DNA from: an uncultured Christensenellaceae bacterium
GTDB lineage: Bacteria; Bacillota; Clostridia; Christensenellales; DTU072
DNA length: 63,077 nucleotides
Assembly: GCA_964432485.1 (NCBI GenBank)
Contig: CAYSNP010000004.1
Span: 24,319 to 87,395 of the forward strand
Direction: 5' to 3'
This document shows, in pieces, positions 18,957-27,457 of the stretch (positions within the stretch are counted from its first letter, which is position 1; each line of letters starts with the position of its first letter). The notes under the pieces were generated by a model, which searched no databases, was not told the DNA's origin, and worked only from the letters and a program-made list of their open reading frames with translations. Made by a program: the position numbers and the translations under genes.

Positions 18957-19853
18957 TCAATACTTTCTTAAAAACTCCTGCACTTGAGTATTGCTAGGGA
19001 TAGCTGCTGCCGCTCCTTTCTTGGTAGTAGCAAGGGCTGCGGCTGCAGAAGCGTATTGTATAGCTTGCACTACCTCTTTGCCTTGCGCCAGCCCTGCCGC
19101 TAAATATCCGCAATAGGTGTCCCCTGCCGCTGTGGTATCTATTGCTTTTACCTTATAGCTTTTGACAGCGTGTCTATCTTTGCCCTCAATAAGCATAGAG
19201 CCTTGCTCCCCTAATGTGACTATAAGGCGAGCAATGCCTTGCTTTAGCAATGCCTTTACTGCTTTTTCAAAATCAGTACTGCCGCCAAGGGTAGCCAGTT
19301 CGTTTTCATTGGGGATAAGGATATCAGTATAGGAGAGCATATCTAAACATGCAAGATTAGCAGGAGCAGGATTAAGCAAGGTAAGCAGTCCTTTTTGTTT
19401 TGCTTGAGCCAGCCCGTATTTTACTAACTCTAAAGGCACTTCCAACTGCGTTAAAAAAATATCTCCTTCTACAGCTGTCTGCAATAGGGCGTCTATATCG
19501 CTTTTTGCCACTTTGGCATTTGCGCCTGCATTGATAATGATTCTATTGTCCGCATCTACTACTATTATTACAGCAGTGCCCGAAGAGCCGCTTGTTTGGC
19601 GTATATAGTTGCAAGCCACACCTGATTGAGCAAGTGCTGAAAGCATTTGTTCGGCAAAGGTATCAGAGCCTACACAGCCTGCCATATACACTTGTGCTCC
19701 CCCCTTAGCGCAAGCAATAGCCTGATTAGCACCTTTACCGCCGGGGTTTAGCATAAAATCATACCCTATTAGAGTTTCTCCCTTTTTCGGAAAGCGGTCT
19801 GCATTGATAACCACATCCATATTTAAGCTGCCTAACACAAAAATCTTTTTCAT
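18957..19853 (-). CDS. rbsK: Ribokinase
   Basis: GSLNMD, PKKGETL, PGGKGANQA, TQLEVP, PNENE, DTTAAGD. Confidence 0.88.
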   Translation of the reverse strand: MKKIFVLGSLNMDVVINADRFPKKGETLIGYDFMLNPGGKGANQAIACAKGGAQVYMAGCVGSDTFAEQMLSALAQSGVACNYIRQTSGSSGTAVIIVVDADNRIIINAGANAKVAKSDIDALLQTAVEGDIFLTQLEVPLELVKYGLAQAKQKGLLTLLNPAPANLACLDMLSYTDILIPNENELATLGGSTDFEKAVKALLKQGIARLIVTLGEQGSMLIEGKDRHAVKSYKVKAIDTTAAGDTYCGYLAAGLAQGKEVVQAIQYASAAAALATTKKGAAAAIPSNTQVQEFLRKY

Positions 19854-19862
19854 TTTAGCACC

Positions 19863-21488
19863 TTATGCTTTATGCAAAGATAAAACTAAACCTTGATACG
19901 CTGACAACTCTATATTGTTTAGGTCAATAGCTTGCTTATCTTTATTAATACTAAGCAGCACTTGCGCAGCTTTATAGTTGCCTGCATTCTCCAAAGAAAA
20001 AACGCATCCTTTTTTGCTCATATTAAGAGCTACAAATACAGTTTCTTGCTCAGTAGTCCTAAAATACGCTAACACATTTTTAGGAGCTTTTTCGTAAAAG
20101 GCAAACTCGCCAAGTCCTAAAGCATTATTTTTTTTGCGCATCCAAATAAGCTTGCGATAGGTATGCAGCAAGGAGTGCGGGTCTTGCTCCGCTTGCGCCA
20201 CATTTATATTTTTGTAGTCTTTATGTACAGGCAACCAAGGTTCTGCGCTAGAAAAGCCGGCATACTCTTCACTTGACCATTGTATAGGGGTGCGCGCGCG
20301 ATCTCTGCCTCTATGAAAAGGCCAATAGTGCTTGCCTACAGAGTCCATTAGTTCATTCCGCTTTATTTTAACATCCAGCATACCTATTTCCTCGCCCATA
20401 TAGATAAAAGGCGTACCTTTAAGAGTAAGGAGCAAAGCTGCCGCTATTTTAGCCCGTGCCAAAGTCCATTTGCCTTTGGCATACCTGCTGATATGGCGAG
20501 GTATATCATGATTGGAAAGAAAGTAGCTTGGCCAGCCTTTGCCTTGCGTAGCATCAAGCCACTGCTGAATATTTTGCTTAAAGCTAGCAGCCGAAAACTT
20601 AGAATGCATAAAGGCAAAATTAAATACCAAATGCATTCCGTCATTGTTATCCCCATAATACTTTACTGCTTCTTCCACATCTTTAATAAAGATTTCGCCT
20701 ACCAGCATTTTATCTTTATACTTATCTGTAAGTGCTCTCATCATTTTGCCCACTCCAACCGCCTCAGGTCTGTTGCGGTCATAAATATGCTTTTGCATAT
20801 CGTAAGGGCGTATGCCTAAGCAAAAAGGATTGTTGCGCAGCTCGCTGTCTTTATGAGAAAAGTTAAGTACATCCACCCTAAACCCGTCCACCCCTTTTTT
20901 TAGCCAAAACTCCATTGCCGCTAGCACAGCTTTTGCAACTTCGGGGTTTTTCCAATTGAGGTCAGGCTGTTCGGGCAAAGAATTATGATAATAATATTGG
21001 CGGGTCTTAGCGTCCCAATCCCAAGCCCGTCCGCCAAACATCCCCAGCCATTTGTTGGGGTATTTGCCTTGCTTGCCGTCCACCCATATATACCAATCCC
21101 TTTTAGGGCTGTCTTTGCTGGAGCGGGATTCGATAAACCAAGGGTGCAAGTGCGAAGTTACGCTTGGCACAATATCCATAAGGATGCGGATACCTCGCTT
21201 ATGCGCTTCCTCCAGCAATTTATCAAAGTCCGCCATAGTACCGTATTGAGGGTCAATGCCCTCATAATCCATAATGTCATATCCAAAATCATATTGCGGG
21301 CAAGGATATACGGGATTTAGCCAAATAGCGTCTATGCCCAAAGAGTTTTCAGTCCCGTCATTTAAGTAATCCAGCTTTTCAATAATGCCCTTAATATCAC
21401 CTACGCCATCATTGTTAGTATCGTTAAAGCTGCGAGGATACAATTGATATGCAACTGCGCTCTTCCACCATTCTGCCTTGCTATTCAT
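19863..21488 (-). CDS. GH13 alpha-glucosidase-like enzyme (oligo-1,6-glucosidase type) with altered -1 subsite
   Basis: WWKSAVAYQLYPRSF, DFGYDIMDY, QPDLNW, DGFRVD, GE, SNHD; region I reads DIVPSVTS instead of the usual DLVVNHTS; ATG 21488 after GGAGG. Confidence 0.9.
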   Translation of the reverse strand: MNSKAEWWKSAVAYQLYPRSFNDTNNDGVGDIKGIIEKLDYLNDGTENSLGIDAIWLNPVYPCPQYDFGYDIMDYEGIDPQYGTMADFDKLLEEAHKRGIRILMDIVPSVTSHLHPWFIESRSSKDSPKRDWYIWVDGKQGKYPNKWLGMFGGRAWDWDAKTRQYYYHNSLPEQPDLNWKNPEVAKAVLAAMEFWLKKGVDGFRVDVLNFSHKDSELRNNPFCLGIRPYDMQKHIYDRNRPEAVGVGKMMRALTDKYKDKMLVGEIFIKDVEEAVKYYGDNNDGMHLVFNFAFMHSKFSAASFKQNIQQWLDATQGKGWPSYFLSNHDIPRHISRYAKGKWTLARAKIAAALLLTLKGTPFIYMGEEIGMLDVKIKRNELMDSVGKHYWPFHRGRDRARTPIQWSSEEYAGFSSAEPWLPVHKDYKNINVAQAEQDPHSLLHTYRKLIWMRKKNNALGLGEFAFYEKAPKNVLAYFRTTEQETVFVALNMSKKGCVFSLENAGNYKAAQVLLSINKDKQAIDLNNIELSAYQGLVLSLHKA

Positions 21489-21506
21489 AATATTTACCTC
21501 CATATT

Positions 21507-22622
21507 TTATTGCCTGCTAATCATAGATTCTGCAATAATAAGCTCCATATCGCCCCGAGTGTTCTCCGGATTATAGTAGCAATCCAGCATCCTTTCATAA
21601 GGGAGATTGTTAATCCTATCATTCATAATATTCAGCACCTTGATATTAACTTCTACCGCCCTTTTTGCGCTCATCCGCTCCGGATTGATATCAATACCAA
21701 TATACTCTGCAAACCCTGCCGCCTTTAGGGCAAGAAGTCCGGCTTCCGCTTGCTCCCATTCTACTACTCCTACATTTAAGTCTTGGTCGTAATTGCCTAG
21801 CGGCTGACTGTTAAAATGAGGATGGCTCATCCTGCCTTCACGGCAAATTCGTGAAAAAACATAAGGAGTATCTTCATAGCCCATTCGTATATGTCCTATT
21901 TCCGGTTGCATACCTACCAGGCAGAAACCTTGCTCCAGCAGGCTGCGATTGATAGGATTAGCAAGCCTTGCTTCTACATCCCTTGCAAGTAGCAATCCAT
22001 CTGCGCAAGTACGGTAAATATTGTTTGGCACAGGCTCGCAAGGCTTGGTTTCAATGCGTACCATAACGCCGGGCACTTCGTCCATAGCGTCTGCAAGTGC
22101 GCCTTCAAAATTTTCCCACATTTGATAGTATGGGTGCCCATAAGAGTAAGTATAGCCATCTATACCCGGCCAAAGCCCGCAAGCATCCGCTTCTGCTACC
22201 TTAACAAATTTAAGTATTTCAATAAGTTTTTTTGTAGCTTGGTCACGGTATTTTGCTATTGGATTGGACAGTGTGCCAAACTCAAATTCTTTATTATAAA
22301 AGGTATGAGGACCTATGCCCGATATTCTGATGCCCGTTTCTTTTTCCAGTTGTTTGTAAAGGTGAAGGTTTTCTTCGTTTATTTCTACACCATAGTGGGC
22401 TTCTATCCCTTTAACTCCGATTGCCTGCATTTCTGCTACCAGTTCAATTCTTTCCGGTATGCTAATTTCTTTACCATAAGGCTCGTGGAATCTGCTTCCT
22501 CCTGGCGATAAGTACCAAATGCCCACAGTAGGTTTGATTTCCAGCTTAAAATTGCGCAAATGTGCTAACATTTGCTCCTTGTCTCTAAATTGTTTTTGAT
22601 ATTGTAGATTTTGTAGTTTCAT
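21507..22622 (-). CDS. Xylose isomerase-like TIM-barrel sugar isomerase
   Basis: VGIW, EAH, WPGIDGY, IETKPCEP, PEIGH, HPHFNSQ, YDQDL, GID align with XylA/L-RhI motifs. Confidence 0.82.
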   Translation of the reverse strand: MKLQNLQYQKQFRDKEQMLAHLRNFKLEIKPTVGIWYLSPGGSRFHEPYGKEISIPERIELVAEMQAIGVKGIEAHYGVEINEENLHLYKQLEKETGIRISGIGPHTFYNKEFEFGTLSNPIAKYRDQATKKLIEILKFVKVAEADACGLWPGIDGYTYSYGHPYYQMWENFEGALADAMDEVPGVMVRIETKPCEPVPNNIYRTCADGLLLARDVEARLANPINRSLLEQGFCLVGMQPEIGHIRMGYEDTPYVFSRICREGRMSHPHFNSQPLGNYDQDLNVGVVEWEQAEAGLLALKAAGFAEYIGIDINPERMSAKRAVEVNIKVLNIMNDRINNLPYERMLDCYYNPENTRGDMELIIAESMISRQ

Positions 22623-22639
22623 AGTTGCCTCCTTAAAAA

Positions 22640-23560
22640 TTATTTGCTTAGCAGATATTTATTATTTAACTGCTCATAGCTTTCCAGCGTGCCCGATGCG
22701 CCTAACTTGCTCACACATTCCGCCCCTGCGGCATTGCCTAGTGCGGCGCAACCCCTTAGCGAAAGACCGTTGCAGCAAGCGGCTAAAAACCCAGCCACAA
22801 AAGCATCGCCTGCTCCCGTAGTATCTACTACCTTAGCAGGGTAAGCAGGTACTTTTAACTGATTTCCGTTTTCTGAGATCAGGCAACCATCCGCCCCCAT
22901 TTTTATAATAACCGTCCTTGCCCCGTGAATATGAAAAAAATTAGCGGCATCTTCTGCCCTTTTTGCCTTTGATAAGCTCAAAGCCTCTCTAATACTGGGC
23001 AGAAAATAATTCACATAAGCAAGAGCAGGGCGCAAAAGCTCAAAATCTTTGGCTTCTCCCGTAGTGTCTAATGCAGTTTTCAGGACAGCTTTTTGTGCTC
23101 TTTTAAGTAAATTAGCCATACCCATACCGTCTAAGGCAGGCAAATCAAAAGCGCTGCCGATATATAGGCAATCATACTGCTTTAGCGTTTCGTTACTGAT
23201 ATCTTTTTCCGCAAAGGTATGGCAAGCCCCTTTATAGGATAAAAAGCTCCGCTGCCCGTTTTTTTGAATCAGTACAGCAGAACTGGAGGTAGGCAGCTCC
23301 GCTTCAAGCACCAGATTAGTGTCCACTCCTGCGTTTGCCGCTTGCTCCATAATTGCTTGCCCTAGCATATCTTTGCCAATACGGGCAGCAAGTGCAGATT
23401 TTACGCCAAGGGCAGCCAAATTAACTGCCACATTAAAAGCGTCCCCTCCGCCTTTTAGCTCAATGGTGTCAACCTCACTGGTATCTACTTTTAAGCAAGT
23501 GTCTTCCACAGGCTTGATAAGTATATCACATACCGCAAGCCCTGCGCATAGAATCTTCAT
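22640..23560 (-). CDS. PfkB-family carbohydrate kinase
   Basis: GLAVCD, GGGDAFNVA, FLPSIRE, VDTTGAGDAF. Confidence 0.9.
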   Translation of the reverse strand: MKILCAGLAVCDILIKPVEDTCLKVDTSEVDTIELKGGGDAFNVAVNLAALGVKSALAARIGKDMLGQAIMEQAANAGVDTNLVLEAELPTSSSAVLIQKNGQRSFLSYKGACHTFAEKDISNETLKQYDCLYIGSAFDLPALDGMGMANLLKRAQKAVLKTALDTTGEAKDFELLRPALAYVNYFLPSIREALSLSKAKRAEDAANFFHIHGARTVIIKMGADGCLISENGNQLKVPAYPAKVVDTTGAGDAFVAGFLAACCNGLSLRGCAALGNAAGAECVSKLGASGTLESYEQLNNKYLLSK

Positions 23561-23573
23561 AAGCGCTCCCCCT

Positions 23574-24431
23574 TTATCCTGCCTTGCCTGCTAAGGCTGA
23601 AAACAATTTTATTTTTTCTTTTACCAATTCCTTTGCCGCTAGTTGTGCGCTTTTGAACAACTTAAAAACATTATAAGAAAACCCCGTCTCTTGTTGAGCT
23701 TTGGCCAGTTGCGCCCCGTATGCGGCAATAAACTCTGTGCAGATATTTACTTTAGCTATACCGCCTGCAATAGCTTCTGCAACCTTTTTGTCAGGCGTGC
23801 CCGAACCCCCATGCAGCACAAGGGGTATGCTCACTTGCAAAGCTATTTCTTTTAGCCTTTTTATATCAATCTTTGGGGTAGAGGTATAGAACCCATGCGC
23901 AGTACCTATAGCCACAGCCAGCGCATCTATATTAGTACGATTTACAAATTCTTTAGCTTGCAGAGGGTCGGTTAAATGCTCTTGCAAAGAGTCTATCTTA
24001 CCTTCGATGCCTATTAGCTGTCCCAGTTCTGCTTCTACAGTAGCATTGTACCCAGACGCAAGCCTAACTACTTTTTGGACAAGCGCAATATTTTCTTCCA
24101 TTGGCAACATAGACCCATCTATCATTACAGAGGTAAATCCAGCATCTAACACCCTTTCCACTTCTTCATAACTTTCTGCATGGTCAAGGTGCAGGGCTAT
24201 AGGTATAGAAAAAGATTGTGCAGTTATGGTAGCCAATTTATAGGCATTTGGATACCCATACATATAATCTCGCTCATAATGTCCTACTTGCAATATTACA
24301 GGCATGCTCAATTCCTGCGCTGCTTCTGCAACTGCAAAGGCAGAGTCAAGCGACCAAAATTCAAATGCGCCTACTGCATATTTTTGTGCTTTTGCCTGCT
24401 GCAGCATTGCTTTCATATTTACAAGTGCCAT
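23574..24431 (-). CDS. Class II ketose-(bis)phosphate aldolase
   Basis: HLDH, SVMIDGS, EAELG, LAVAIGTAHG, LVLHGGSG, KVNICTE. Confidence 0.92.
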   Translation of the reverse strand: MALVNMKAMLQQAKAQKYAVGAFEFWSLDSAFAVAEAAQELSMPVILQVGHYERDYMYGYPNAYKLATITAQSFSIPIALHLDHAESYEEVERVLDAGFTSVMIDGSMLPMEENIALVQKVVRLASGYNATVEAELGQLIGIEGKIDSLQEHLTDPLQAKEFVNRTNIDALAVAIGTAHGFYTSTPKIDIKRLKEIALQVSIPLVLHGGSGTPDKKVAEAIAGGIAKVNICTEFIAAYGAQLAKAQQETGFSYNVFKLFKSAQLAAKELVKEKIKLFSALAGKAG

Positions 24432-24443
24432 ATACCCTCCATA

Positions 24444-25652
24444 CTATAAAAGCCTTTTCCACAATAAGCTATCTTTGTTATCTTCATCAAATTGCTCATT
24501 GAAAATCAAGGTTGTCGCACCTTTTACAAATAGCTTTTCTTCATTGCATATTTCTATTTTTATATCATCTCTGGTAATAAAATCAGTGCGCTCGAATACC
24601 TTTTGCATTAGGCGATTTTCTAGAGCGGGGAAGCTAGGCAAGAAAGTAGAGTCCAGCACAATAAGTTCAGGGTCGTATGCCTTTATTATATTATCTATAC
24701 TTTGCGCAATATAATCTGTTGCTTGCTCCAATAATTGCATGCTAAACGCATTTTGATTTTTGGCAGACTCAATTATCCAAGCCATATCCAGCTCCGCCTT
24801 AGCAATTTTGTCTAAGCCCTTCTGCTTTTCTGCTTGTGCTTTGGCATAGCTGACTATCCCTAAATTAGAGGCATATAACTCAACACACCCAAAATTGCCG
24901 CAACTACATTGTTCGCCGTTAGGATTGATGCTAATATGCCCAATCTCACCTGCAAAATATCTGCTCCCTCTATATACTTTGCCATCTATTGTTATACCTA
25001 TTCCAATCCCTTCTACGGTAGAAAGATATACAATATTGCTATTAGTTCTATTTGATTTTAAGTATAAAACATTGGCATTGTTATCATTGTCCACAAGCGT
25101 GGGCAAGCTCATTTTTTTGCCCAGAAGCTCACCCAGAGGGATGTTCTTCCACCCTTTGATATGCGGCAATTCCAATATTACTCCTCTTGCAAAGTCAACA
25201 GGACCGGGCACAGATACTCCAATCCCGGCAATATCTTTTTTTTCAATACCGCTCTTTTCAATAATGCAGTGTATTTTGTCCGCTAAAACTTGTACTACTT
25301 CTTCTATTGAGTTATCGGCAAGTTTGAATTTTTCGCTACTGCAGCTAGCTTGCCCAAAAGCAAAATCAAATATGCCAATGCTAATCTGCTCAATACCGAT
25401 AGATACCCCTATTGTATACAAGCTCTTAGGATTTAAGCCATATATTGCCGCTTTTCTGCCTCCGGTAGAGATAGCAAGCCCATTATCTAATACAATTTCT
25501 TGAGCCAGCAGCTCATTGACAAAAGCATTTATAGTGCCTGCTGTAAGCACAGTCTTTTCCCTTAGCTCCTGCTTGGTAAGTTTACCGTGCCGCCTAAAGC
25601 AATCCAGTACCTCTAACATATTTTTGCGCTTAACTAAACTGGTAACTGCCAT
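24444..25652 (-). CDS. ROK-family transcriptional repressor (NagC/XylR-like)
   Basis: N-terminal wHTH plus STGGRK; GVSVPGPVD, VDNDNNA, GEIGH, CSCGNFGCVE. Confidence 0.92.
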   Translation of the reverse strand: MAVTSLVKRKNMLEVLDCFRRHGKLTKQELREKTVLTAGTINAFVNELLAQEIVLDNGLAISTGGRKAAIYGLNPKSLYTIGVSIGIEQISIGIFDFAFGQASCSSEKFKLADNSIEEVVQVLADKIHCIIEKSGIEKKDIAGIGVSVPGPVDFARGVILELPHIKGWKNIPLGELLGKKMSLPTLVDNDNNANVLYLKSNRTNSNIVYLSTVEGIGIGITIDGKVYRGSRYFAGEIGHISINPNGEQCSCGNFGCVELYASNLGIVSYAKAQAEKQKGLDKIAKAELDMAWIIESAKNQNAFSMQLLEQATDYIAQSIDNIIKAYDPELIVLDSTFLPSFPALENRLMQKVFERTDFITRDDIKIEICNEEKLFVKGATTLIFNEQFDEDNKDSLLWKRLL

Positions 25653-25915: not shown

Positions 25916-27457
25916 ATGAATAGCATAAAACAAGAAAACACTAAGCAAAACTCTGTCCAAAAACTCTCCAATAGGAATCTTTTGATGTTTTCATTAGGGA
26001 CTTTTGGCAGAGATTTTGTCTATTGCTTATTTGCCGCAAATTTAATTAACTTTATATTATATACCAAGCAGTTGACAGAAGTGCAATTCGGCGCTGTTAC
26101 CGCTATTATTATCGGCGCAAGGCTGTTTGACGCTTTTAATGACCCTATTATGGGCGGCATTGTAGAAAATACCCGAACAAAATGGGGCAAGTTTAAGCCC
26201 TGGCAGCTTATTGGCTCAATCACTACGGGGATAGTAATTATAGCGTTATTTACCAATGATTATCAAGGCAGCTCTTTTGTATGGTTCTTGGGTATTATTT
26301 ATTTTTTGTTTAGTATTACCTTTACTATGAATGATATTTCTTATTGGGGGATGTTGCCTTCGCTTTCCAGCAATGAGCACGATAGAAGCAAGCTAACAGC
26401 AGTAGCTCAAATAGTAGCAGGCGCAGGCGGAGCTTTGGCAGGTGTAGCTATCCCTCTTTTTACTATTGGCAAATCTGCAATAGGCGGCAATGCCGTAACA
26501 GGATATAAGGTGATTTCAATTGTGTCCGTATTGCTAATGATTGCTTTTCAAATGTTTACTATATTGGGAGTAAAGGAAAAGCCTTTAGCACCTATCTTAG
26601 AGAAAAAGGATAAGCTCACCATAAAGCAAATGTTTACTACATTAGCAAAAAATGACCAGCTAATGTGGATAACAATAATAACCTTACTTTTTTGCATAGG
26701 CACAGGAGTAGTGGATGGAGGTCTTAACACTACTTATATTTACTTTGAATTTGGTTACGAAGGCTTGCTAATTACCCTTTTTGGCATCGTGTTTGCGGCG
26801 ATAAGCGGTGTCTTTACAGTAACTTACCCTTGGATAGAAAAGAAATTCTCCAGAACAAAACTGATATATACAACAGGCATAGCTTTAATTGTGGGCTATA
26901 TGCTAATGCTTATTTTTGGATTAATTCTGCCTTCTGGGGCACCAAATACTGCAGCTTGGTATGCCAAATTCATAGTTATGGCTTTAATTAATGGTATAGT
27001 AGGTTTTGGCAGAGGTTTTTATATGATAATGATTATTTCTATTGCCAATACCGTAGAATATAACGAGTACAAATTCGGTAAGCGTGAAGAAGGGCTGATT
27101 TTTTCCTTGCGTCCTTTTACTGCAAAGCTATCCAGCGCAATTTCTCAAGGATTGGTAACGGTAGTATATATTGTGGCAGGGGTGCTAACCTATACTAATA
27201 AAATTTCTGCATTGGAAAACGAAGCAGCTCAAAACATAATTTCTGAAGAAGTAAAGACGGGTAAAATTAAGGATATTATCAGCACTGTTTCTGCAGATGC
27301 AAAAAAAATGTTGTTAGTGTGTATGTGCTTGATTTGCATGTCAATTATGGCTGTGGCATTATTTATTTATAAAAAGAAGTTTACTTTAGACGAAGCTACA
27401 TACTCAAATATTCTCAGAGAGCTAGAGGCAAGGAGAGCTCAAGAAGAGGATAGCTAA
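25916..27457 (+). CDS. MFS glycoside-pentoside-hexuronide (GPH/MelB-like) transporter
   Basis: ARLFDAFNDPIMG, TRTKWGKFKPW, DISYWGM, NTVEYNEYKFGKREEG; about 12 hydrophobic segments. Confidence 0.9.
   Translation: MNSIKQENTKQNSVQKLSNRNLLMFSLGTFGRDFVYCLFAANLINFILYTKQLTEVQFGAVTAIIIGARLFDAFNDPIMGGIVENTRTKWGKFKPWQLIGSITTGIVIIALFTNDYQGSSFVWFLGIIYFLFSITFTMNDISYWGMLPSLSSNEHDRSKLTAVAQIVAGAGGALAGVAIPLFTIGKSAIGGNAVTGYKVISIVSVLLMIAFQMFTILGVKEKPLAPILEKKDKLTIKQMFTTLAKNDQLMWITIITLLFCIGTGVVDGGLNTTYIYFEFGYEGLLITLFGIVFAAISGVFTVTYPWIEKKFSRTKLIYTTGIALIVGYMLMLIFGLILPSGAPNTAAWYAKFIVMALINGIVGFGRGFYMIMIISIANTVEYNEYKFGKREEGLIFSLRPFTAKLSSAISQGLVTVVYIVAGVLTYTNKISALENEAAQNIISEEVKTGKIKDIISTVSADAKKMLLVCMCLICMSIMAVALFIYKKKFTLDEATYSNILRELEARRAQEEDS

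Follow-up and report, generated by a model that had tools for sequence, protein, structure and literature searches.

The question raised by the locus

What reaction is catalysed by a sugar isomerase whose metal ligands mix those of xylose isomerase (XI) with those of L-rhamnose isomerase (L-RhI), and which pathway does it feed? The question arises from one gene in a 63,077-nucleotide stretch of DNA from an uncultured Christensenellaceae bacterium (GenBank assembly GCA_964432485.1, contig CAYSNP010000004.1, positions 24,319 to 87,395 of the forward strand), here called the window, in which position 1 is the first letter. The isomerase gene is an open reading frame at 21507..22622 on the reverse strand that starts with ATG, 7 nt after the Shine-Dalgarno sequence AAGGAGG, and it encodes a 371 amino acid protein with the TIM barrel fold of xylose isomerase (PF01261, AF2 model and Foldseek; below). 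We consider it probable that this protein is an active two-metal isomerase of a separate family, and that in the window's clade it feeds a kinase-aldolase module encoded beside it.

Metal ligands and active site

The motifs quoted in a preliminary description of this DNA are all present in the 371 amino acid product: WPGIDG (residues 151–156), IETKP (190–194), PEIGH (240–244), HPHFNSQ (267–273), YDQDL (278–282) and GID, the latter within GIDINPE (309–315). A HMMER alignment with the Thermus XI (1BXB) equates E191 with Glu181, K193 with Lys183, E241 with Glu217, H244 with His220, H269 with Asp245, N271 with Asn247, D279 with Asp255 and D281 with Asp257. The 1BXB alignment also pairs H76 with the ring-opening His54, and the alignments with class I XI pair W36, F45, F108 and W151 with the hydrophobic Trp16, Phe26', Phe94 and Trp137, all of which are retained; that with the Streptomyces enzyme reaches isomerase residue 316 (XI residue 292) and places D311 opposite Asp287. 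Three of the four metal-1 ligands of class I XI (Glu181, Glu217, Asp245 and Asp287) are kept and the other, Asp245, is replaced by His269, while all of the XI metal-2 ligands and the equivalents of His54 and Lys183 are present (E241, H244, D279, D281, H76 and K193). In the window, on the reverse strand, these residues are encoded at 22395..22397 (His76), 22041..22055 (IETKP, with the metal-1 ligand Glu191 and Lys193), 21891..21905 (PEIGH, with the XI-type bridging Glu241 and the metal-2 ligand His244), 21816..21818 (His269), 21777..21791 (YDQDL, with the metal-2 ligands Asp279 and Asp281) and 21690..21692 (the metal-1 ligand Asp311).

According to a 2024 review (PMC11485043), Asp254 and His281 of the Pseudomonas stutzeri L-RhI correspond to XI Glu217 and Asp245; together with the 1BXB alignment of E241 and H269, this bears out the earlier proposal that the protein joins an XI-type glutamate to an L-RhI-type histidine. 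The complete L-RhI metal-1 set (Glu219, Asp254, His281 and Asp327) is not reproduced; the histidine is there (H269), and the Asp254 position is occupied by Glu241. The ligand and catalytic residues, including His76 and His269, are invariant across 20 family members that are 58–80% identical, so the hybrid set is a trait of the family and not a chance feature of one sequence. Metal site 1 of this family reads Glu-Glu-His-Asp, as against Glu-Glu-Asp-Asp in XI. The reported change of WGGREG to WPGIDG is sound in part: the replacements of R by I and of E by D are new relative to XI, whereas WPG is ordinary (the Thermus XI has WPGREG) and the D is also found in the structural genomics entry 3KTC (WPGQDG).

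Relationship to known isomerases

The sole Pfam assignment of the protein is at superfamily level, to PF01261 with 34.3 bits against a gathering cut-off of 31.1. Its score on the class I XylA model TIGR02631 (xylA_Arthro) is 36.7 bits (34.6 bits in the genome search) against a cut-off of 447, and TIGR02635, for the Gram-positive L-rhamnose isomerase, gives 27.9 bits against 531 and covers the N-terminal half only. TIGR02630 (class II XI, cut-off 533 bits) has no match in the isomerase scan and none genome-wide, and beyond the two models just named nothing in the NCBIfam scan of the isomerase matched, no other rhamnose isomerase model appearing at E ≤ 0.01. The best solved relative by sequence is 3KTC (E 2.7e-10), followed by class I XI, with the P. 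stutzeri L-RhI at an E value of only 0.3. A structure model, proposed as a check in the preliminary description, gave a confident TIM barrel (AF2 from an alignment; pLDDT 88, pTM 0.89), and Foldseek ranks its relatives in the same order: 3KTC (TM-scores 0.76/0.85), class I XI (0.74/0.71) and P. stutzeri L-RhI (about 0.70/0.63), at 17–22% identity to the solved structures. Placement outside the XylA, RhaA and L-RhI families, which agrees with the earlier assignment to an uncharacterised branch, rests on these hidden Markov model cut-offs, Protein Data Bank (PDB) identities and fold scores. Judged by sequence, the isomerase represents a sister family of the xylose and rhamnose isomerases.

Class I XI (TIGR02631; 1BXB, 1XIB and 4XIA) shares with it the TIM barrel (TM about 0.74) with both metal sites aligned, and the bridging Glu, the metal-2 His/Asp/Asp and both catalytic residues are common to the two. 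The XIs of the Streptomyces/Thermus/Arthrobacter type are nevertheless only 18–20% identical to the window's protein, and differ in having Asp245 in place of His269, Lys289 in place of Asn313 (read from its motif position in GIDINPE) and WGGREG or WPGREG in place of WPGIDG; the window's protein is also longer by about 20 residues at the N terminus, and its C-terminal helical arm is shorter. P. stutzeri-type L-RhI (2HCV, 2I56 and 3ITT) shares the metal-1 histidine (PMC11485043) and has TM-scores of 0.68–0.73 when normalised to the query and 0.61–0.65 when normalised to the target; it differs in its bridging Asp254, in its length of about 430 amino acids and in its pathway partners, since neither a rhamnulokinase nor a RhaD-type aldolase lies near the window's gene. 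The top match by both sequence and fold, 3KTC, is a "putative sugar isomerase" of Pectobacterium atrosepticum that also has WPGxDG. It is 22% identical and about 330 amino acids long, its DFGH and MDVNDN motifs put Asp at both variable ligand positions, and it belongs to a separate family whose members are 24–30% identical to the isomerase.

A word-indexed search returned 2854 relatives, the top 120 of which are 58–91% identical and about 370 amino acids long. In a library clustered at 50% identity, 317 representatives were found at E ≤ 1e-3 and 30 at 1e-30, and the best representative outside the isomerase's own cluster is 43% identical. The best 80 of 571 confirmed genome loci all lie in metagenome-assembled genomes, of Actinomycetota, Spirochaetota, Dictyoglomota, Anaerolineae, Planctomycetota, Sumerlaeota, Bathyarchaeota and two Clostridia. 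The isomerase belongs to a tight, isolated and uncharacterised family that is almost confined to uncultured anaerobes. Neither a literature search nor NCBIfam yielded a publication or curated model for this family, and literature searches on 3KTC, on sulfoquinovose in connection with xylose isomerase and on a novel XI class turned up nothing relevant.

The adjacent kinase and aldolase

The isomerase gene lies in an operon with the order ROK regulator, aldolase, kinase, isomerase, GH13 glycosidase and ribokinase; all six genes are on the reverse strand, the gaps are 3–17 nt and no internal terminator is predicted in it. The PfkB-family kinase (22640..23560; PF00294) has E. coli YdjH (3H49/3IN1) as its best PDB match at E 6e-45, the next match being at 5e-22, and is a likely ketose kinase for the isomerase product. 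Its orthologues adjoin the isomerase gene in loci L001, L096–L098, L103, L104, L107, L109, L110 and L119. YdjH acts on ketoses in partnership with YdjI, a class II aldolase (PMC9602453), and the adjoining gene of the window's operon (23574..24431) encodes a class II aldolase of the fructose-bisphosphate/tagatose-bisphosphate type (FBA/TBA; PF01116), the family of YdjI and of the sulfofructose-phosphate aldolase SqiA. The likeness to E. coli lies in this specifically YdjH-like kinase and PF01116 aldolase; the differences are that in the ydj cluster dehydrogenases are present but an isomerase is lacking (PMC9602453), and that the operon aldolase, with S. aureus FBA and E. coli AgaY as its closest matches, gives a lower score with YdjI than with these two. 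The same isomerase-kinase-aldolase logic is found in the rhamnose, fucose and sulfo-Embden-Meyerhof-Parnas (sulfo-EMP) pathways, the isomerases of which are from other families.

Fructose-bisphosphate aldolases hold the 6-phosphate by Ser49, Arg259 and Arg280 of the partner subunit, and in SqiA an Ala stands in place of Arg280 (PMC10665668). The housekeeping FBA of the window's genome (G000:C3:67972-68886) retains QVS, DLR and DPR, whereas all seven aldolase orthologues aligned with it, from the window and related loci, read QVG, TEF-I/L and N-x-(F/L/D/P), so that the Ser and both Arg ligands are lost in every one. Because these ligands are missing in all seven, the window's enzyme is predicted not to be a 1,6-bisphosphate aldolase, and its distal pocket appears remodelled and not cationic. 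On the same ground a route that runs through a 1,6-bisphosphate, made by two kinases and split by an aldolase for bisphosphates, was considered and rejected. The aldolase and its orthologues in L001, L097, L099, L103, L104 and L107 also have a distinctive GAFEFWS and GHYERDY stretch, and the operon enzyme looks like a member of a separate, undescribed aldolase subfamily.

The clade of the window's isomerase

In a maximum-likelihood tree the window's isomerase groups with L001 (Christensenellaceae), L002 (Defluviitaleaceae) and L003 and L005 (Anaerolineaceae) with an SH-aLRT support of 95, and this clade is nested among clades linked to FGGY kinases. No FGGY kinase adjoins the isomerase gene in the window or in any of these four loci; the clade has lost it. 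The earlier remark that there is no FGGY xylulokinase next to the gene is confirmed: none is in the operon, and the best XylB-like gene of the genome, on another contig, scores 319 bits (cut-off 380). The window's genome (1.94 Mb, 97% complete) has no canonical XylA and no XylB above the cut-off. It is only in the window's clade that the xylulokinase is missing; a YdjH-like kinase and an aldolase are found there instead. The 319-bit protein is the sole XylB-like FGGY kinase of the genome (L081; G000:C15:34608-39059) and is encoded between a HemL-like aminotransferase gene and two FucA/AraD-family genes; it was considered as a hidden partner of the isomerase and rejected, as it sits in an unrelated small sugar or amino-sugar cluster.

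A metagenome scan added relatives at 71–98% identity, several of which seem to derive from termite gut (from a sample accession shared with L002 and the isolate name of L002). The PfkB kinase and class II aldolase are recurring neighbours in this clade of at least 71% identity, which includes Christensenellaceae, termite-gut and digester contigs. Both lie near the isomerase gene in the window, L001, L097, L103, L104 and L107, the kinase only in L098, and neither in L101, L102 and L002/L108; shorter contigs of the clade carry one or the other. The GH13, ribokinase-like and GPH transporter genes are present, within this clade, only in the window, L096, L097, L098 and L001, and the termite-gut loci have instead genes for URO-D-like proteins, short-chain dehydrogenases/reductases (SDR), GFO/IDH/MocA and old-yellow-enzyme oxidoreductases and GH38. 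In L104 (1316-9191) and L103 (6885-8159), which by sample accession are apparently from termite gut, the isomerase, kinase and aldolase genes are interleaved with one to three genes for URO-D-like (methyltransferase-type) proteins, and these contigs also carry SDR, GFO/IDH/MocA, flavin adenine dinucleotide (FAD) and old-yellow-enzyme oxidoreductases; such gene sets may serve the processing of a modified, perhaps O-methylated, sugar. In the Anaerolineae branch, at 63–65% identity, the PfkB kinase is a different one and is joined by a FrcK-like P-loop kinase, and GH13 and GPH genes may be present or absent. In L003 (12012-12869) and L005 (12027-12845) this P-loop kinase, of the PRK09270 family (FrcK-like nucleoside/nucleotide kinase), is encoded after the isomerase and the PfkB kinase.

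The changes that separate the window's clade from the rest of the family are G43S, S117T, L161Y, T163H and F38L only, to which its innermost members add W270F, P192T/S and Y195C; the active-site core is the same in XylB-linked members and in the window's clade. The isomerase gene is found in three of 401 sampled Clostridia genomes, the other two copies being just 46–47% identical, and this rarity indicates that it was probably acquired horizontally; the G+C content of the operon region (18957-25652), 42.7% against 39.9% for the whole window, is also consistent with this.

The remaining operon genes frame those for the three enzymes discussed above. The first gene (24444..25652, reverse strand) encodes a ROK-family regulator with an N-terminal helix-turn-helix, as found by domain scans, and a promoter-like site lies upstream of it at 25724-25696. 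The GH13 glycosidase gene (19863..21503, reverse strand; PF00128) begins 3 nt downstream of that for the isomerase and recurs in L001, L003, L005, L096–L098 and L113. The last gene (18957..19853, reverse strand) encodes a ribokinase-type PfkB kinase (TIGR02152 311.5 bits against 299.65; PDB ribokinases up to 209 bits), and a gene for a GPH-family glycoside:cation symporter (25916..27457, forward strand; TIGR00792 258 bits, cut-off 231) is divergent from the operon.

Linkage of the family to xylulokinase

Neighbour clustering of 75 genome loci of the isomerase family gave a different picture elsewhere. An FGGY kinase gene is nearby in 39 of the 75 loci, and in 25 it is directly adjacent and on the same strand; 15 of these 25 kinases share 68% identity or more with proteins scoring 544–580 bits on the XylB equivalog (cut-off 380), and in those 15 loci the isomerase gene is directly upstream of that for a true xylulokinase. 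Five loci (L030, L031, L038, L047 and L060) also have a divergent ChvE/GguA/GguB monosaccharide ATP-binding cassette (ABC) transporter, three of them with a ROK regulator, which is the classic xylR/transporter/xylAB layout with the family gene in the place of xylA.

Co-occurrence was examined in 87 sampled genomes from the actinobacterial class to which L047 belongs. Of these, 48 have the isomerase gene and 11 a class II XylA (one a fragment below the cut-off), no class I XylA above the cut-off is found in any of the 87, and XylB is above its cut-off in 67. Among these 67 the isomerase occurs in 6 of the 17 genomes with another XI candidate versus 39 of the 50 without one (odds ratio 0.15, Fisher p 0.002), and so in 39 of the 67 it is the sole candidate isomerase, a pattern that suggests functional replacement of XylA. 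A further protein of 345–360 amino acids, which scores 180–215 bits on the class I XylA model (cut-off 447), is present in 11 of the 87 genomes (G074:C116:1140-2093, G082:C94:153-1103 and nine others) and may represent another XI-like group. The xylA position, the XylB linkage and, among XylB-bearing genomes, the inverse relation to canonical XylA make xylose isomerase, of a third class, the best guess for the whole family, at roughly even chances; the preliminary statement that a XylA label would be wrong is, in that form, unsupported.

A proposed route and its alternatives

The isomerase would bind two divalent metals, open the pyranose ring with His76 and, in the manner of XI, carry out a metal-mediated 1,2-hydride shift from C2 to C1 that yields a 2-ketose. 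This would be phosphorylated, probably at C1, by the YdjH-like PfkB kinase, and the class II aldolase, having no 6-phosphate pocket, would split the resulting ketose phosphate into dihydroxyacetone phosphate (DHAP) and a short aldehyde. In the window's genome the aldose would be supplied by the GPH importer and the GH13 glycosidase under control of the ROK regulator, while in most lineages the family would act as a xylose isomerase that feeds the adjacent xylulokinase. The sugar is most likely D-xylo/gluco-configured with the C6 hydroxyl absent or changed. The configuration is suggested by the XI-type ligand geometry and the alpha-gluco-type GH13, and a missing or non-polar C6 by the neutral aldolase pocket. 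Because of the family's link to XylB we rank D-xylose first, at somewhat less than an even chance; 6-deoxy-D-glucose would come well behind it, glucose and an anionic C6 sugar would follow as slightly weaker and equal candidates, and some other sugar accounts for the rest. It is also possible, although we put this forward tentatively, that the operon represents an undescribed natural route in which a D-xylo/gluco-configured sugar without a normal C6 hydroxyl is freed from an alpha-glycoside by GH13, isomerised, phosphorylated at C1 and cleaved to DHAP and glycolaldehyde or lactaldehyde, with the wider family forming in parallel a third XI class. Were this so and the sugar D-xylose, bacteria would have a natural version of the xylulose-1-phosphate pathway, which in a limited literature search was found only as an engineered one.

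Several observations sit badly with the isomerase-kinase-aldolase route. The operon ribokinase has no explained role in it, and the operon includes no aldehyde reductase or dehydrogenase gene. The partner glycosidase varies, being GH13 in the window and GH38 in the termite-gut loci, and in the Anaerolineae branch no aldolase gene is nearby and the FrcK-like kinase is found instead. Ten of the 25 adjacent FGGY kinases are not XylB equivalogs, and the co-occurrence test ignores genome kinship and uses metagenome-assembled genomes that are incomplete. In one actinobacterial metagenome-assembled genome, G001, an isomerase-xylB pair exists alongside a canonical xylA-xylB pair, so the substrates of the two isomerases may differ; of its two xylulokinase equivalogs, in the regions G001:C12:18957-21812 and G001:C14:812-3444, one adjoins the class II xylA and the other the isomerase of the new family. 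Phosphorylation at C1 is a further weak point: that YdjH acts at this carbon was reportedly found by Huddleston and Raushel in 2019.

The simplest alternative is that the window's enzyme is a plain third-class D-xylose isomerase that makes xylulose for the pentose phosphate pathway, with the PfkB protein as a non-orthologous xylulose 5-kinase and the aldolase unrelated. The XylB link of the family and its anticorrelation with canonical XylA point this way, as do the identical active-site core of XylB-linked members and the window's clade and the lack of another XylA or XylB in the genome. We nevertheless think it unlikely, since isomerase, kinase and aldolase are found together in six or more independent loci and the aldolase has lost its bisphosphate site, which argues for a shared pathway, and since YdjH, the nearest relative of the kinase, has the aldolase YdjI as its partner; moreover, we infer that the usual substrates of PfkB kinases are sugars in ring form, and in a ring xylulose has no free C5. 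An isomerase of a C6-modified glucose (6-deoxy-D-glucose, sulfoquinovose or glucuronate), which would give sulfo-EMP-like or deoxy-EMP-like routes a third type of isomerase that is not homologous to the others, seems to us quite doubtful. The layout of GPH importer, glycosidase, isomerase, PfkB kinase and aldolase does mirror the E. coli yih cluster and sulfo-EMP2, SqiA is likewise a PF01116 aldolase that has lost the Arg280 equivalent, and the changes G43S, L161Y and T163H are the clade's own. Yet the operon has no gene for a sulfolactaldehyde reductase or dehydrogenase, an exporter or a mutarotase, its aldolase is no closer to SqiA (164–172 bits) than to FBA or AgaY (197 bits), the Arg has given way to a neutral residue that varies (F, L, D or P) and is not cationic, and the known sulfoquinovose isomerases are of the YihS or FucI families. 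The hallmarks of sulfo-EMP and sulfo-EMP2 are a YihS (PF07221) or SqvD (PF02952) isomerase, YihQ (GH31) and a sulfolactaldehyde reductase or dehydrogenase (PMC9594981), and domain scans found none of these families in the operon. With no sulfonate-handling genes, an aldolase no nearer to SqiA than to FBA and a neutral, variable Arg position, the sulfo-EMP reading in particular is ranked low.

That the protein has some other activity found in PF01261, such as that of a ketose 3-epimerase, dehydratase or hydratase, and is not an aldose-ketose isomerase at all, is highly improbable. The superfamily is functionally diverse and the Pfam match is weak at 34 bits, and the genes of many family members are grouped with those for further PF01261 barrels, GFO/IDH/MocA enzymes and zinc alcohol dehydrogenases. 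Against this, the full XI two-metal set is kept, including His244, Asp279 and Asp281, together with the His54 and Lys183 equivalents, and the nearest folds are those of XI and L-RhI. To our knowledge, single-metal epimerases lack the XI metal-2 ligands and the equivalents of His54 and Lys183.

Implications

Xylose (glucose) isomerase is among the most heavily used industrial enzymes, and forms that function in yeast are sought for pentose fermentation. The family described here differs from XI in sequence and in the chemistry of metal site 1, where the His ligand may shift metal preference, and it appears to replace XylA in many uncultured Actinomycetota, Spirochaetota, Dictyoglomota and Bathyarchaeota. 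At the level of the family a XylA label may be functionally right, and from such a replacement a fresh source of xylose isomerases and corrected pathway reconstructions for those lineages would follow. The operon isomerase of the window is predicted to feed a downstream route different from XylB, and the linkage of its clade to a YdjH-like kinase and an aldolase without a bisphosphate site offers a tractable entry to a new sugar pathway and perhaps a hint of what enzyme pairs of the E. coli YdjH/YdjI type do in nature.

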